Part shown: positions 3,261 to 47,099 of the stretch, in pieces
How positions within the stretch are numbered: position 1 is the first letter of the stretch
Layout: each line of letters opens with the position of its first letter
Virus record (IMG/VR): IMGVR_UViG_3300020048_000083
Location: 1-64,000 of that record
Direction: 5' to 3' (one strand)
DNA: 64,000 nucleotides
Source: a virus
Taxonomy: Duplodnaviria; Caudoviricetes
Program-made: the position numbers and the translations under genes
The notes under the pieces: model-generated
What the model was told of the DNA's origin: nothing
The model's database searches: none
Seen by the model: only the letters and a program-made list of their open reading frames with translations

Positions 3261-4121
3261 TTATTTATTTCTCACAAGAACTACACTGTATCCTATACCT
3301 ACGGAAGGTATCGCCCAGTTAAATGCTGTTGGTGTGGTGAACGGCGTATACCCTATATTAAGAAAGTTTACCGACAAAGAAAACCCCGTTCGAAGAGAGT
3401 ACTTAGTCTTAGGTATGTTTGGTGGGTTACTAACAGGCTCTACCTTATACGGCACCATTAATAGGTTAGCCCCTCGATAATGCATATCAAGTAGATTCTT
3501 GGATATAGGTTTGGTGTAATTACCAACGGAGTCAATAAAATAAGGTTCAATAGTTAATCGTGTCACCTTTTCCTTTTTATCATCATACTGGGCTATCACT
3601 AATCCAAAATTAAGTGAAAAGTTATCGATAACAGTATTGTTCGGTGTGATTTCCAATTTATCTGGCGTGTTTATAGCTTTGAACCAAGAAGTCGCCCCTA
3701 TCGTGCGTACCGAGTCAAAACTATAAAAAGAAAGTCCGTATCTATCCGCGTCCTTAGGGTCACGCACAAGTTTATTACTGGTAACAACCTCTTTTGGTAT
3801 ATACTCGGGTCTGGCAATATAAATAATTTTTGGGTGTTTCTTTAGAGAATCCAATTCTCTTGTTAGTTTATATAAATTCTTGTCAGCCAACGCTAATTGT
3901 TCACGCGTTACCTTTAAAACGATAGTACTATCGTTAACAGCTTTCAAGTTGTTATCGGCTATGATCTTAGCTTCCGCTGTTTCTTTCTTAGCCTGACGGG
4001 TTGACCCGCATTGGTTGAAGAATAGGAAGATGAACAACAGCATCAATACTGACGCGATCCAACCCCAGTTTTTAATTATAAAACTGACGGTTCCTTTGAT
4101 AAATTGCCAAAATGCTAACAT
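3261..4121 (-). CDS. Membrane-anchored protein (N-terminal TM, coiled coil, C-terminal beta-strands); spanin-like or envelope protein
   Basis: ORF track, 286 aa. Hydrophobic WIASVLMLLFIFLFF, then a helical coiled coil, then a C-terminal amphipathic strand PSVGIGYSVVLV. Function is inferred. Confidence 0.6.
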   Translation of the reverse strand: MLAFWQFIKGTVSFIIKNWGWIASVLMLLFIFLFFNQCGSTRQAKKETAEAKIIADNNLKAVNDSTIVLKVTREQLALADKNLYKLTRELDSLKKHPKIIYIARPEYIPKEVVTSNKLVRDPKDADRYGLSFYSFDSVRTIGATSWFKAINTPDKLEITPNNTVIDNFSLNFGLVIAQYDDKKEKVTRLTIEPYFIDSVGNYTKPISKNLLDMHYRGANLLMVPYKVEPVSNPPNIPKTKYSLRTGFSLSVNFLNIGYTPFTTPTAFNWAIPSVGIGYSVVLVRNK

Positions 4122-4183: not shown

Positions 4184-4200
4184 TTTTTGCAAAAAAAAAC

Positions 4201-4731
4201 TTACATACCACCCGAAACAGCGCCCTGCAAATGCCCCATTAGCTGGGGATTGAAGTATTTGTACGCACTGGTTAGCATCCCAAGATTCTTTTCGTTAATC
4301 TCAAGGAAATTATCGTATTTAGCCTGTATACTTTTATTGGCACTATTGATATTGAATACCATCGGTTGATTATCCTGCATGGTTACTTTTATTGTTAGCA
4401 CCATAGCCGAATCACTAATGTGTACAGTCATCATATCAATGTTATTAACTGTACCCTGCATAGCTTCCATAAAACCGTTTAGGATTGTTTGTAAACCCAT
4501 AGTGATATTACCTGCCAGTTCGTCCTGAGAGTCAGAAACCACGGTAGCGATCTGATTGTTATCAAGTGTAATTTTTTTATCGTCATTCTGGGTATTTAAA
4601 GACCTGTCAGATAGCTCAGAATCCTGACTACCTATTATATGCGGATTGTTGTACTGCTCTTCTTTTAAGACCTTACGTACACTATCCATATGTTTCTTCA
4701 TAGAAACGTATTCAAAGTCGTGGTTTGGCAT
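4201..4731 (-). CDS. Hypothetical protein (176 aa)
   Basis: ORF track; TAATG overlap with the amidase-fold gene. Confidence 0.75.
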   Translation of the reverse strand: MPNHDFEYVSMKKHMDSVRKVLKEEQYNNPHIIGSQDSELSDRSLNTQNDDKKITLDNNQIATVVSDSQDELAGNITMGLQTILNGFMEAMQGTVNNIDMMTVHISDSAMVLTIKVTMQDNQPMVFNINSANKSIQAKYDNFLEINEKNLGMLTSAYKYFNPQLMGHLQGAVSGGM

Positions 4732-5339
4732 TATTTCATCGTTTTAATAGTATTGTTTATATGTTCAAAGTATGGTAAAGCCGCTGGTGATAGGTCGTAG
4801 TAGCACTTAGCGTAATTACTGCGGTTTAACACCCCTTGGAACTCCTTAGCCTCTTCTATAGGTAGATTAGTACCTGAAAATACTGACTTAATATGGTGCT
4901 CCTTGATTAGCTCACTAATAACCTGTAGCATAGACTCAATTTGGTTGGCATCATACCAAGCCCAACTGTTATGCCCTCGCCACATCATCCCGTGTATCTT
5001 TCCATTATAAATACTTCCTTTCCAATCAAAATGATCCCCGCCGACACTCTTTCTGGTGAGATAACCCACATTCTCTAATCCGATCGATATAATTTGGCTA
5101 TCAATTTCGGGGACGCCAAACAGGTTGCTGTAATGTAGCGGGCTGAAATGCTGATAAATTTGACCGTCAAGACCAATTGTAAATGTAAACGACGCATCGT
5201 ATGCGCCGTTATGCCTGTTTGAAATCTTCGTAAAATAATCTTCAATACTTGAAGCAGTGTGCGCTAAAAGAATTTGCGTCTTAATACTGGGTTTTTTTGA
5301 TACTTGGTTATTGCTAACCATATGGTCTGTGTTAATCAT
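4731..5339 (-). CDS. N-acetylmuramoyl-L-alanine amidase (Amidase_2) fold protein, endolysin-like; second Zn-ligand His appears replaced
   Basis: Motifs LLAHTAS, FTIGLDGQIYQH, ISIGLEN, Q-x-ES-x-x-x-VI and YYDLSP. ATG 5339 (the track uses GTG 5342). Confidence 0.7.
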   Translation of the reverse strand: MINTDHMVSNNQVSKKPSIKTQILLAHTASSIEDYFTKISNRHNGAYDASFTFTIGLDGQIYQHFSPLHYSNLFGVPEIDSQIISIGLENVGYLTRKSVGGDHFDWKGSIYNGKIHGMMWRGHNSWAWYDANQIESMLQVISELIKEHHIKSVFSGTNLPIEEAKEFQGVLNRSNYAKCYYDLSPAALPYFEHINNTIKTMK

Positions 5340-5550
5340 CACCTTTTAAATACCTTAATTCGGGATAAAATCCGATCTTTTATTGGTGTAGATTGCTGCT
5401 CATTACTCTGAATGCTTTGTGGCGCTGGGCTTTGCGGCACAGACACTGGGCGATCTTCTGATAAAGACATTTGCCTATTCCGTTCTGCCTGTTCGGATAT
5501 GTCGTCAACTATTTTCTGGTGGTCTACCTCAGTACTCAGTTTTTTTTTTC
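5339..5550 (-). other. Candidate -1 frameshift site (A10 run, A-AAA-AAC) and 66-codon C-terminal extension of gene 5536-6486
   Basis: Gene ends GAA AAA AAA AAC TGA. The -1 frame from CTG (5539) is open for 66 codons (LSTEVDHQKIVDD...RIKVFKR), and its TGA (5341-5339) overlaps the next ATG. Confidence 0.7.
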
Positions 5551-6486
5551 ATCCTCGAAGACTATAATTCGGTCTTGAGGCGCTGGTGTTTCGTCAACCA
5601 CGGGTGGAACTTCTATCACGGGTACGTCAACAACTGGTGTACTTAATTCGGCAACTGGTGCACTTAATTCGGCAACTGGTGCACTTAATTCGGCAACTGG
5701 GGGATTATCAATGTCAAATAGCTTTAGCTGCGCTGGGTCTTCAACGGGAACGTCTGAATCATCTTTCTTTGGTGTGTATGAATACTCAGGTCTTTTCACC
5801 GCGGCTTGACGTATATCACGTAATATGTCTGGGTGTATGGTAAGCTCAGGTTCTGTTGTAGGTTCTGTTGTAAGCTCAGGTTCTGTTGTAGGTTCTGTTG
5901 TAAGCTCAGGCAAAGTTTCAATAACTGGTGTTACGTCATTTGGCGATGGTAAATTATAATCCTGTTGGAACGGTATTGATTCTTCTGTAACCTTAGCGCC
6001 ATCAGCGTTTTCGGTTGATTCCATCCTCATAGTCCTAATGAAAAAATGGAAGAAGGTAATGGAAATAAGCGGAATCATAGCCCCACTAAAAGTAGCCAAG
6101 ATACGTTTATGTACAATAATGTTTCCAGCGGTTTCCCAGCCGAACCAATTAAATAACGGGTCAAATAGTTCAACCCAGTTTTTGAATAGTGTGCTGGTTA
6201 CATCAATGTTTGTATAGCTGAAAAACACGTTTCCGATGATCTGTATGAGAGTTACTATACTGAAAGGGAACCAAGCCCAGTTTGATAGTTTGCTTGCCGC
6301 TATGGAGCTTAAAACAGCCACCTCGACGGCAACAGAAAGGAAGATAGCCCAGCTTGCTGGATTACTGATCTCCCAGAACGTTACAACGTGAGCCAGTGAC
6401 ACAATTACTGCGAACAGTATTGGCAATAAGTATGACGTCAGCGTTATAGTCCTATAATGCTTTTTAAGATATGGAATAAATTTCAT
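5536..6486 (-). CDS. Multi-pass membrane protein (about 4 TM) with acidic Pro/Thr/Glu-rich repetitive tail; possibly holin-like or lysis-associated
   Basis: ORF track, 316 aa. Four hydrophobic segments in the first ~150 aa; lies directly upstream of the amidase-fold gene. 382 aa if frameshifted. Confidence 0.7.
   Translation of the reverse strand: MKFIPYLKKHYRTITLTSYLLPILFAVIVSLAHVVTFWEISNPASWAIFLSVAVEVAVLSSIAASKLSNWAWFPFSIVTLIQIIGNVFFSYTNIDVTSTLFKNWVELFDPLFNWFGWETAGNIIVHKRILATFSGAMIPLISITFFHFFIRTMRMESTENADGAKVTEESIPFQQDYNLPSPNDVTPVIETLPELTTEPTTEPELTTEPTTEPELTIHPDILRDIRQAAVKRPEYSYTPKKDDSDVPVEDPAQLKLFDIDNPPVAELSAPVAELSAPVAELSTPVVDVPVIEVPPVVDETPAPQDRIIVFEDEKKN
5631..5700 (-). repeat. 21-bp tandem repeat x~3 (PVAELSA/T)
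   Basis: Plus-strand unit acttaattcggcaactggtgc at 5641, 5662 and 5683 (partial), plus a partial unit at 5631. Confidence 0.95.
5841..5910 (-). repeat. 30-bp tandem repeat x2.3 (PELTTEPTTE)
   Basis: Plus-strand unit taagctcaggttctgttgtaggttctgttg, perfect at 5841 and 5871, partial at 5901. Confidence 0.95.
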
Positions 6487-6487
6487 T

Positions 6488-8242
6488 TTACAGTAGTGAT
6501 TTTTTGAGTTCCTTGACTTCAGTTATTGTACGATGTAACCCAATAATACTCATTTCGTACAAAAAGGAAAGGTTTTCTTCTTCCAATTCATTACTATCTG
6601 TGGAACCCGCACCTGTACCCATTTGCTCATTCATCAAAGCGATGATGCCTTTGGCTGTAGTGCTTATAATTTCAAGATTTGCCTTTACAGCCGCGTCATC
6701 ATTACGCCACAAAGAGATATATGCAGCCGAATGCTTCAATTTTTCGGTTGGGATACCAAAATAGCGGAGTACGACAAACGCGCTTCCTTCAGCCTGTAGT
6801 TCTAATACCTGTGTATCGTTACGACCTACGTAAGCGTCTTTAATAATCGTTTCCTTTGAAGTTAAACGGTCTGCTGGGTCAACTTTAATACCCCTTGCCT
6901 CTTTGTCAGCTATAATAGCCAATTTTCGGCTAACCTCTTTCTTTATTTGGTCAGTTAAGAACGTCTGGTGTGTTAAAGAGTGCGCCAGCTCATGTGCTGC
7001 CGTAGACGCCCTGCCGACGCCAGCGTTGGACGCTAACAAAGTAATATCACCCATCATTGACGAGCTACCCTTTGAGCCGCCCATATCTTCCTTTTCTTTA
7101 AAGTTTAGATTGAGTTTTTTAATAACCTCAACCAAAACCTCATAGATTTTGTCAGCTATTTCGTCGGGCTCTGATGTATGCCACTCTGGTGCCGATGGTC
7201 TTGAAGCCACTGGCATGTCCTGTATTTGTTGTACGTCTTCAACGTCCAAATGGGTAAACCGCATTTTGAACGCATGATACCCGCTCATTCGAGAAGATTG
7301 AATACGAACAAATTTATCCAGACTTAATTTTTCAGAATAACCCAAACCAGTTTTTTGAACGGGTTTTAGGTACCATAGGTCTTCCTTCGTCGCATTATCT
7401 GGTAACTTTGGTTTGCGGTAATCCTCGCGCCACTTATTTTCCGCGGCTATAAGCGCACTATCTCCACCACCTACGGTCGAAGGTACCCAAAGACCAATCC
7501 TACCTACGCCAGGATACTTAGCAAGTAGCGTCTGCGGGTCTTTTGGCTCCATATTCAATTTCTTCCAATCACCTGCTGACAGCACCTCTCTCGCATTTCT
7601 ATTTTGCAAGTAAATTAAGAACGTATTGATAAACGAATACCTAAATACGGAAGCAAATTGAAGGTACTGGTTAACCTTAGCTATAAGGTCTGCATCACTA
7701 ACGGCGTCGGCTAATTCGTCAACAAACTTGCCAAGCTGCGCCTCAATATTTTCCCGTGTTTGCGGAAGCTCTATACTCGGGGCAACGGTACCTTCAATAA
7801 AGTCGCGAACCTGTTCAAGTTTTGTCAGGAAGGCATCAAGTTTAGGGTTAGCTTTGGATTCAACCTCTGGGTTGTCTGGGCTATGCGCCTTACCTAGCGC
7901 TATATTTACATCACGCAAAAATAATTGAATAGTGCGAAGCTGGGCTTCAATAAATTCTGGGGTTTTAGTTCGCCAAAAGAAAAAACGCCAGTTCTCACCT
8001 TCCTTAATCGGACTTGGTGGGAACTGGAAGAATGGCTTTCCGTTTGCAACGGGCGGGTTCTGGTTGTAACGCGCATTAAACCAGCCGTTATTATCTTTAT
8101 TAGCCCAAATGAAATTCTGAGCCATAAAATCGATTTCTGGCTTTGACCCAACTATCCATAACCTGAATGTGTCGTTGTGCCCTTGTTTTTGTACGTCCAG
8201 TTCCTCGTCGATAGAAGCATAACTTTCGCTGATCGTTAACAT
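6488..8242 (-). CDS. ardC: ArdC-like anti-restriction protein: ArdC N-terminal ssDNA-binding domain plus zincin-like metallopeptidase (MPTase) domain
   Basis: FRYSFINTFLIYLQN...VLSAGDWKKL is ArdC-N-like. STAAHELAHSLTH is an HExxH motif. ELQAEGSAFVVLRYFGI and HSAAYISLW match the ArdC C-terminal motifs. Confidence 0.8.
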   Translation of the reverse strand: MLTISESYASIDEELDVQKQGHNDTFRLWIVGSKPEIDFMAQNFIWANKDNNGWFNARYNQNPPVANGKPFFQFPPSPIKEGENWRFFFWRTKTPEFIEAQLRTIQLFLRDVNIALGKAHSPDNPEVESKANPKLDAFLTKLEQVRDFIEGTVAPSIELPQTRENIEAQLGKFVDELADAVSDADLIAKVNQYLQFASVFRYSFINTFLIYLQNRNAREVLSAGDWKKLNMEPKDPQTLLAKYPGVGRIGLWVPSTVGGGDSALIAAENKWREDYRKPKLPDNATKEDLWYLKPVQKTGLGYSEKLSLDKFVRIQSSRMSGYHAFKMRFTHLDVEDVQQIQDMPVASRPSAPEWHTSEPDEIADKIYEVLVEVIKKLNLNFKEKEDMGGSKGSSSMMGDITLLASNAGVGRASTAAHELAHSLTHQTFLTDQIKKEVSRKLAIIADKEARGIKVDPADRLTSKETIIKDAYVGRNDTQVLELQAEGSAFVVLRYFGIPTEKLKHSAAYISLWRNDDAAVKANLEIISTTAKGIIALMNEQMGTGAGSTDSNELEEENLSFLYEMSIIGLHRTITEVKELKKSLL

Positions 8243-8244
8243 TG

Positions 8245-8589
8245 TTACTTTTTCTTTACTACCTTATTCCGTCGAACCGTTTCCAGCTCTTTGTTCAATT
8301 TGGCTATTTCCTTATCAATTTCTGTTTGGCGATTAACATCGAGCATTCTACGGTCGGTTGACTGTATCATTCTTTTTTCTGCCTTCAGACCTTCGATTTG
8401 CAGCATTAAGGAGAACTCTTCTGCCGTTACACTACTAACGCTATCAATCCGCTGGGTGTTATTACTAATAGCCTTTGTATTTTTAGCTATTGATTTACTT
8501 TGGTTACAGTTTTGTACTAAGTTGATCATCAAGAAGAAGACCAGCAATACAATACCGTAATCACGTAGCCACTTTAAAGTGTTTTCCAT
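8245..8589 (-). CDS. Small membrane-anchored coiled-coil protein (spanin-like?)
   Basis: ORF track, 114 aa. N-terminal TM GIVLLVFFLMINLV, then a Cys, then a coiled coil. Confidence 0.6.
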   Translation of the reverse strand: MENTLKWLRDYGIVLLVFFLMINLVQNCNQSKSIAKNTKAISNNTQRIDSVSSVTAEEFSLMLQIEGLKAEKRMIQSTDRRMLDVNRQTEIDKEIAKLNKELETVRRNKVVKKK

Positions 8590-46166: not shown

Positions 46167-46193
46167 AAAAAGGTAGAAACTTTTTTTTTTACC
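46167..46193 (-). terminator. Weak possible terminator after the SSB gene
   Basis: Minus strand GGTAAAAA...TTTCTACC followed by TTTTT; one mismatch and an AT-rich stem. Confidence 0.35.
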
Positions 46194-46196
46194 GTT

Positions 46197-47099
46197 CTAA
46201 AACGGTAAATCAGAAGGATCGATATCATCACCTGCCACTGGGTCTGTGTCAACCGCAGGATGATCAGTCTGGGTTGCAGGTGGTGTAGATGTATTAGCTT
46301 CGCCAACGGCGCTGCCAATGTTATCCTGTGTACCAGAACCTTCGGTATCATCCGAATCGATTTTTGGAATCCATTTATTTTCCGATTCTGACCAAGTTGG
46401 TGTTTTACCTTCGGCTACGATATACAGGTATTCTGTATCGTATTTCTTGTAAACATTTTCCCATGTCATTGTGTCGTCAACCCACTGCTGTGAAAGCTGT
46501 TCGTTGGTTGACAATGCTGATGGGTCATTCGGAAGAATTGCGGAAATGGCGGTGTATTCACCGTTATTCTGTTTATTTTTCACCTTGGTAAGTGTGATAC
46601 TCAGGTCGCGACCAGTTTTAGGGTCGGTAATATCCCCAAATTTCTTGAAGATAGGGCTGATCAAATCGAAAATTCCACCACCTTTGTCGTCATGAGGAAA
46701 TCTCCAGAATTTTACTCCTTCGTTTTCCTTTTCACGTTCGATACCTTTGACCACGTAGAATAAACGCGGGCGGTAATTACGTGCCAGCGCTTTATCTGCT
46801 GGGTCATTGGACGCCTTTAGCAAATTGTAAACGTCGCTAAGCGGCGAAGATTTACCTTCGTTCTTACCTGGATCGTACAGTTTGCGATGGTTGTTACCAA
46901 CCTTGATAGAGTGGAACCAAATTTCGGTGAAAACCAATTGGTCGGGTTTCGGGGGAAGCATACGGAATGTTTTTTCCCCACGTGATACACCCTGTGGAAG
47001 GGCGATTGTGAAATACTTTGTCAAGTCTGTCGACTCGAACTGACTCTGTGATGCTCTTTTGGCTTGTTGTGCCAGCACCTGATCTACTACATTGCTCAT
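46197..47099 (-). CDS. Single-stranded DNA-binding protein (T4 gp32-like)
   Basis: KTFRMLPP, WFHSIKV, DPGKNEG...SPL, VKFWRF, GDITDPKTGRDL; acidic tail ending DDIDPSDLPF. Confidence 0.88.
   Translation of the reverse strand: MSNVVDQVLAQQAKRASQSQFESTDLTKYFTIALPQGVSRGEKTFRMLPPKPDQLVFTEIWFHSIKVGNNHRKLYDPGKNEGKSSPLSDVYNLLKASNDPADKALARNYRPRLFYVVKGIEREKENEGVKFWRFPHDDKGGGIFDLISPIFKKFGDITDPKTGRDLSITLTKVKNKQNNGEYTAISAILPNDPSALSTNEQLSQQWVDDTMTWENVYKKYDTEYLYIVAEGKTPTWSESENKWIPKIDSDDTEGSGTQDNIGSAVGEANTSTPPATQTDHPAVDTDPVAGDDIDPSDLPF

Follow-up and report, generated by a model that had tools for sequence, protein, structure and literature searches.

A conserved A10 run at the 3' end of a membrane-protein gene in an uncultured giant phage is a probable programmed slippage site

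A handful of bacterial genes provide well-documented cases of programmed slippage on A-runs, and recoding in phages is textbook knowledge for tail chaperones and capsid proteins. The known phage -1 cassettes include the lambda G/GT tail chaperone and T7 gene 10, while Escherichia coli dnaX uses the heptamer A-AAA-AAG. Two forms of a membrane protein are produced in a different way by the lambda holin/antiholin pair S105/S107, namely from dual starts at the N-terminus. In many bacteria, transcriptional slippage becomes evident once a run reaches nine nucleotides (PMC1088944). Thermus thermophilus dnaX (A9) and Shigella mxiE and spa13 have heterogeneous mRNA and two functional products, and slippage in spa13 also affects the expression of an overlapping downstream gene (PMC1088944, PMC5009743). 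The tssM1 gene of Citrobacter rodentium carries an out-of-frame A11 and makes about 20-25% of the long form, whereas the run in Yersinia pseudotuberculosis tssM3 is in frame and slippage yields the short form (PMC4256274). For a Roseiflexus IS, the work of Penno et al. 2015, in the form in which it is reviewed in PMC5009743, describes a nascent stem-loop directly 5' of the slippery motif as a stimulator of slippage. In the literature we found no description of recoding in a phage membrane-protein gene or in a gene beside a cell-wall enzyme gene, nor any published description of the membrane-protein gene family considered here. In other words, the kind of recoding is already known, and the family that carries it is one for which we found no description.

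The DNA that we analysed is the first 64 kb (hereafter, the window) of an 83.8-kb metagenomic viral contig from IMG/VR. Since the completeness of this contig is estimated at 26%, the phage represented by the window is a giant one. The features of the window that are central to our analysis are as follows:

6486..5536, minus strand: zero-frame gene for the short isoform, 316 aa, from an ORF call; 37 homologs
5580..5553, minus strand: sense-RNA hairpin CCUCAAGAC..GUCUUCGAGG, 9 bp with one bulge, about -9.6 kcal/mol, a proposed stimulator of slippage
5549..5540, minus strand: A10 slippery run, abutting the zero-frame TGA at 5538..5536
5539..5342, minus strand: -1-frame extension of 66 codons, which would complete a long isoform of 382 aa
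5341..5339, minus strand: TGA stop of the extension, sharing TGATG with the ATG of the next gene at 5339..5337
5339..4731, minus strand: downstream gene for a 202-aa protein of the Amidase_2/PGRP fold, putatively coupled in translation

The 316-aa gene ends GAT GAA AAA AAA AAC TGA, so that the run (GAA AAA AAA AAC) holds two heptamers in phase, A-AAA-AAA and A-AAA-AAC. A preliminary description of the window had placed A10 and A-AAA-AAC directly against the stop codon. It had also claimed a -1 frame open for 66 codons up to a TGA overlapping the amidase ATG, rapid closure of the other frames and a 193-bp intergenic gap filled by the extension. Our analysis bears out each of these points. The -1 frame reads LSTEVDHQK...RIKVFKR, the +1 frame is closed within 2 codons after the run, and the gap between the 316-aa gene and the amidase-fold gene measures 193 nt. 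As predicted from sequence, the templated A10 mRNA encodes the 316-aa protein with the C-terminus DEKKN, mRNA with one extra A encodes 382 aa with the junction DEKKK-LSTEV, and mRNA with one A fewer encodes 318 aa ending in DEKKTEY. Within coding sequence of the window this run is the sole A/T run of at least 9, and the number of A10 runs expected in 64 kb from base composition is about 0.1. The remaining two A/T runs of this length (4191-4199 and 46181-46190) are both intergenic. The one at 4191-4199 reads as A9 on the plus strand and as T9 on the strand of the genes, lies in a 79-nt spacer between a 176-aa and a 286-aa gene and might belong to the region of a terminator or promoter.

The protein collections contain 37 relatives of the 316-aa protein, and its own clade comprises 16 protein clusters. 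Fourteen of these clusters terminate at ..(D/G)(E/Q)KK(K/N) or at most 4 residues beyond, and none of the 16 is a fused 382-aa allele. P0006 has no EKK(K/N) terminus and runs on in frame to ..ERVLNQMQVFKK; its locus (L126) lacks the A-run, keeps the basic C-terminal motif in frame and again overlaps the next ATG. P0016 reads DEKKKL.. in frame. Its locus (L131), which we term the outgroup, has GAT GAA AAA AAA AAA CTG, that is, A11 in frame with window-like flanks, and here, too, the motif is in frame. Exactly A10 is found in eight loci: the window and L002, L003, L125, L127, L128, L129 and L130, which share about 45-95% protein identity with the window and come from differing samples and assemblers. 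In all eight the zero-frame stop (TGA, TAA or TAG) lies 0-2 codons past the run, and the length of the -1 frame varies across the A10 relatives from 15 to 66 codons. Their -1 tails end in (I/L)(K/R/E)(D/E)x(I/V)LSx(I/V)(K/N)(V/I)F(K/R)(K/R), represented in the window by ..ILSRIKVFKR, and the window extension terminates in a conserved basic helix motif, ..PIKDRILSRIKVFKR. In every close relative the stop of the extension overlaps the next ATG, at a distance of -1 or -4, and across the family the stop of the membrane-protein gene overlaps the ATG of an Amidase_2-fold gene. The coupling layout proposed earlier for the window is confirmed by this overlap. Conservation of the slip site and of an open -1 frame in homologs had been named in advance as a test, and it turned out positive in 7 of the 7 close relatives that have the A-run.

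The main alternative foreseen at the outset was a homopolymer error, with a true A11 and a single 382-aa ORF. The window comes from a metagenomic contig, and errors are frequent in homopolymers. However, the same A10 was recovered in the seven diverged relatives and in independent assemblies from different assemblers and samples (ENA k141, SPAdes NODE, Logan). The short protein P0004 occurs in identical form on 6 contigs and P0015 on 8. In addition, out-of-frame and in-frame runs of A9, A10 and A11 coexist in the same kinds of assembly data, which rules out a systematic miscount of homopolymers, including the under-calling of A11. We give hardly any credence to a sequencing or assembly error as the explanation of the A10 run.

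In the window, L003 and L125, pN/pS of the tail is 0.17-0.38 in the -1 frame versus 0.7-2.3 in the other two frames, and the last 15 tail codons of the eight loci have a pS of 0.68 and a pN of 0.22. Only in the -1 frame does the tail show purifying selection. Such a frame might also belong to a separate small gene with its own start; the window extension has an internal ATG (at 5470, giving 43 aa), and a 51-aa ORF was predicted by a gene caller in L127. However, Met is absent from the extensions of L128, L129 and L130, and that of L129 is only 15 codons long, which excludes an independent small gene in such loci. Furthermore, in L126, L131 and the wider family the membrane protein itself ends with the motif in frame. 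These observations make a separate gene very improbable. Ordinary family members (190-330 aa) have the basic C-terminal motif in frame (e.g. IKRLSYTKRD) and in most cases abut or overlap the next gene, at about -17 to +23 nt; in shifted members the distance to the next gene equals the length of the -1 tail. Stop-codon readthrough or reassignment was also considered and rejected, as the tail is not in the zero frame and the stops that follow the run include TGA, TAA and TAG alike.

The same arrangement recurs across the family. Alignment-based scans of IMG/VR, where single-protein scans gave none, identified 427 relatives, and a metagenome scan gave distant family members only. No close DNA relatives were detected among GenBank phages by blastn, and the sole tblastn match was one uncultured 462-kb phage at 33% identity, with no cultured relative. 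We sampled 149 unique family genes, of which 59 have a terminal A9 (3 genes), A10 (48) or A11 (8) followed by a -1 tail (median 74 aa); of the rest, 11 have in-frame runs of at least 9 and 79 have no run. All 59 shifted genes require the identical shift, one extra A. Where run length differs (9, 10, 11), the change is at the 5' edge and leaves the frame relation intact, and terminal runs of A7-A8 in the family have no tail. The median length of shifted genes is 473 aa including the tail versus 253 aa for run-less genes. Of the 57 unique genes in a second clade, 47 are shifted, with ..RNVxNxxRRxxR closing the tail in 39 of them; the five in-frame members of this clade have this motif as their C-terminus in frame. 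The shifted state is found in at least 3-4 clades, an approximate count of independent origins obtained from a quick tree only, in which the support for the clade of the window is 100%. Five loci of the second clade (L163, L190, L201, L202 and L207) have A11 and then shortened -1 tails (33-71 aa) without the basic motif, and four of them end in ..DDKK(S) at a short A6 run; these may be decaying or differently organised variants.

Based on these data, the A10 run is most likely a conserved frame-switch site, and the gene most likely makes proteins of 316 and 382 residues. The earlier proposal of two isoforms produced by recoding is thus supported by the conserved A10 and stop, by the selected -1 extension and by the 59 shifted genes of the family. 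A different explanation would be phase variation at a hypermutable DNA tract, or else a frameshift that is tolerated, with the long form made from A11 genomes only and the assembled A10 being either the commoner allele or a decaying gene end. Replication slippage is common on long A-runs, in-frame (L010, L024, L131) and out-of-frame states are both present in the family, and the few truncated, motif-less tails of L163, L190, L201, L202 and L207 would fit as well. Nonetheless, the lineages of the window's clade that keep the run are out of frame, with an in-frame A11 only in the outgroup L131/P0016, and purifying selection on the tail requires its translation from out-of-frame genomes. The constant frame relation of runs that change in length at their 5' edge also speaks against this explanation, and the association with a hairpin, to which we turn below, would be left unexplained. 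We consider phase variation or a tolerated frameshift improbable.

The hairpin of the window ends 3 nt ahead of the A10 run. A locus was counted as having a match if a terminal hairpin of -5 kcal/mol or better ended 0-4 nt before the run. With these thresholds, which were set after the first set had been seen, hairpins are present in 8 of 13 independent shifted lineages of that set versus 9% of random positions within those loci (P ~7e-6). Across a grid of thresholds the enrichment in the first set has P values from ~7e-6 to 5e-3, and at the tightest settings (end within 2-3 nt, -8 kcal/mol or better) it is not significant. In the second clade, for which the same thresholds were reused and 4 of the 32 lineages are shared with the first set, a hairpin is present in 15 of 32 sequence clusters versus 8% of controls (P ~7e-9). 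At in-frame runs such a hairpin was found in 0 of 18 cases. At the -5 kcal/mol threshold, 5 of the 13 and 17 of the 32 lineages have no hairpin. Several loci have GAGG or GGAG, a candidate Shine-Dalgarno-like stimulator, 3-6 nt before the run, but within the 3' arm of the hairpin. An intrinsic terminator was rejected as an interpretation of the hairpin, which in the sense RNA is followed by A's, not U's. A second hairpin-plus-A10 element lies at 46181-46206 (minus strand), where ACCGTTTTAGAACGGT covers the TAG stop of the gene 47099..46197 and A10 follows directly, in a 79-nt spacer ahead of the next gene. No long alternative frame follows this element, and therefore it is not a recoding site like that at 5540-5549.

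The hairpin and the A10 run together probably constitute a programmed transcriptional slippage cassette, a reading drawn from sequence comparison to which we assign a probability of roughly 60%. After transcription of ten A's the whole RNA-DNA hybrid would consist of rA:dT pairs, and a hairpin just behind the polymerase would form at the upstream edge of the hybrid. The resulting geometry would be that of an intrinsic terminator with A's replacing U's. In a fraction of transcripts the RNA would realign and one A would be added. The A10 mRNA would then be translated into the 316-aa membrane protein, whereas A11 mRNA would give the 382-aa protein, whose cytoplasmic tail would have the conserved basic helix of the family at its end. 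Only ribosomes on A11 mRNA would terminate on the ATG of the amidase-fold gene, and slip frequency may therefore also set the level of the amidase-fold protein through coupling. We infer both that the shift occurs at transcription and that there is a ratio of isoforms.

The long isoform might instead be made from the templated mRNA by -1 ribosomal frameshifting on A-AAA-AAC or A-AAA-AAA, perhaps aided by the adjacent stop. All cases have an X-XXY-YYZ heptamer in phase, since A10 always contains A-AAA-AAN, and in L127, L128, L130 and L092 it is A-AAA-AAG, the most shift-prone bacterial heptamer. The position of the zero-frame stop 0-2 codons past the site and the GAGG-like purine stretch just upstream of it would also suit the ribosome. 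However, seven A's would suffice for this mechanism, yet 59 of the 59 shifted genes have 9-11, and A7-A8 termini are tail-less. Within 100 nt downstream of the run we found no conserved or unusually stable structure (the z-score in the window is +0.9 and the relatives share no fold), be it a stem-loop or a pseudoknot, and no match to an Rfam element. The enriched structure stands upstream of the site, and upstream hairpins are known as attenuators rather than stimulators of -1 frameshifting. Thus, the run length that is always at least 9 and the location of the hairpin upstream, not downstream, favour slippage by RNA polymerase over a ribosomal heptamer mechanism. Ribosomal frameshifting seems to us possible, although clearly less probable than transcriptional slippage, and both could contribute. 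The preliminary description had left -1 frameshifting and A10 slippage side by side; recoding as such is upheld, and the evidence now favours slippage over the ribosomal heptamer.

As for the products, the membrane protein has no significant match in Pfam, PHROGs or NCBIfam, including holin families, and no fold match in the PDB. The Atlas search returned only unnamed viral hypothetical clusters and a faint DUF2637 look-alike. In the AF2 model of P0006, a natural full-length relative, residues 3-158 form helices (pLDDT ~60-96, best over residues 80-150), residues 159-316 are disordered and residues 317-329 form a C-terminal helix. Judging by this model, the N-terminal bundle (about residues 1-158) consists of four to five membrane helices. 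Past the helices, the 316-aa protein has an acidic, proline-rich, repeat-bearing disordered linker ending in ..FEDEKKN before the stop. By the positive-inside rule, KKHYR ahead of TM1 and RTMR behind the final TM suggest an N-in, C-in topology with a cytoplasmic tail. In comparison with P0001-P0004, the linker (window 5620-5960, minus strand) contains the short tandem repeats PELTTEPTTE and PVAELSA, and the number of repeat copies in the window (316 aa) is not the same as in the 95%-identical P0001 (299 aa).

The downstream 202-aa protein scores 28.5 bits with Pfam PF01510, for which the cut-off is 26. Its AF2 model has a pLDDT of 83, and with Foldseek it matches AmiD, PGRP-SA, LytA amidase, T7 lysozyme and phage endolysins (E 4.5e-5 to 3e-4). 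In alignment A5 both L125 and L130 have Asn in place of the LLAHT His, a candidate zinc ligand, and the region near the C-terminus shows no evident GH...C motif of the typical kind. As judged from these residues, the amidase-fold protein may bind the cell wall without cleaving it. Close-clade synteny comprises genes for a sigma factor, a small TM and coiled-coil protein, an ArdC-like protein, the membrane protein and the amidase-fold protein, followed by a 176-aa gene and then a 286-aa TM protein; the ArdC-like gene is missing from two close-clade relatives. The 584-aa gene upstream in the window (6488-8242) has weak matches to an anti-restriction PHROG and to zincin/PolyVal metallopeptidases, and it is absent in the otherwise syntenic P0010 and P0011 loci. 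Two other conserved neighbours on the minus strand have no family match: one, of 114 aa (8245-8589), combines an N-terminal TM with a coiled coil, and in the other, of 286 aa (3261-4121), an N-terminal TM precedes a Cys, a coiled coil and, at the end, a beta-rich part. By sequence, both products have an envelope-directed look with a spanin-like flavour.

A lysis-cassette role of the locus is plausible. One might speculate that the hairpin and A10 are a device for both the timing and the dosage of lysis, in which slippage sets the ratio of tail-less to tail-bearing forms of a new large holin-like protein. Since slipped transcripts alone would bring ribosomes to the coupled start, the amidase-fold protein would be metered too, and the basic tail may bind it. 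We regard this proposal as rather doubtful; if true, it would mean a holin/antiholin-type pair obtained by recoding instead of dual starts. If the membrane protein is the holin of the phage, this would be a new way to produce two holin forms. The recoding layout is conserved over a very large family of phages that are uncultured and in many cases giant. The shifted genes come out of gene callers split or truncated, as with the separate ORF in L127, and as a result annotations of the family are systematically wrong. In addition, a hairpin that is paired with the A-run yet absent at in-frame runs provides natural comparative material on hairpin-driven realignment of RNA polymerase.

Compared with known systems, the phage gene would resemble lambda S105/S107 in having two membrane-protein isoforms that differ in one charged terminus and are encoded beside a cell-wall enzyme gene. 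However, the phage protein is far larger and has no holin-family match, and its lysis role is a conjecture. As in lambda G/GT and T7 gene 10, a C-terminally extended minor isoform would come from one gene and a slippery heptamer is present; unlike in those cassettes, no downstream stimulator was found, the run is longer than a heptamer and the gene encodes a membrane rather than a structural protein. A coding homopolymer of at least 9 is shared with T. thermophilus dnaX, mxiE and spa13, which are other genes, and slippage in dnaX leads to the short product. The stem-loop directly 5' of the slippery motif and the terminator-like geometry are shared with the Roseiflexus IS as it is presented in the review; there, however, the motif is T5C5 with a one-base deletion, whereas the phage has A9-A11 and needs a one-base insertion or a two-base deletion (PMC5009743). 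A direct precedent is C. rodentium tssM1, where poly-A also precedes a premature stop in a membrane-protein gene and A's added to the mRNA restore the frame, giving a long C-terminal variant besides the short one (PMC4256274). It differs in being a bacterial secretion-system gene whose run precedes the stop by 28 nt and for which no hairpin upstream is described (PMC4256274). Slippage in tssM1 and tssM3 has been shown experimentally, whereas the phage family is known here by sequence comparison across dozens of lineages (PMC4256274). The out-of-frame and in-frame pair formed by tssM1 and tssM3 (PMC4256274) is mirrored within the phage family itself by the clade of the window, on the one hand, and L010, L024 and L131, on the other.
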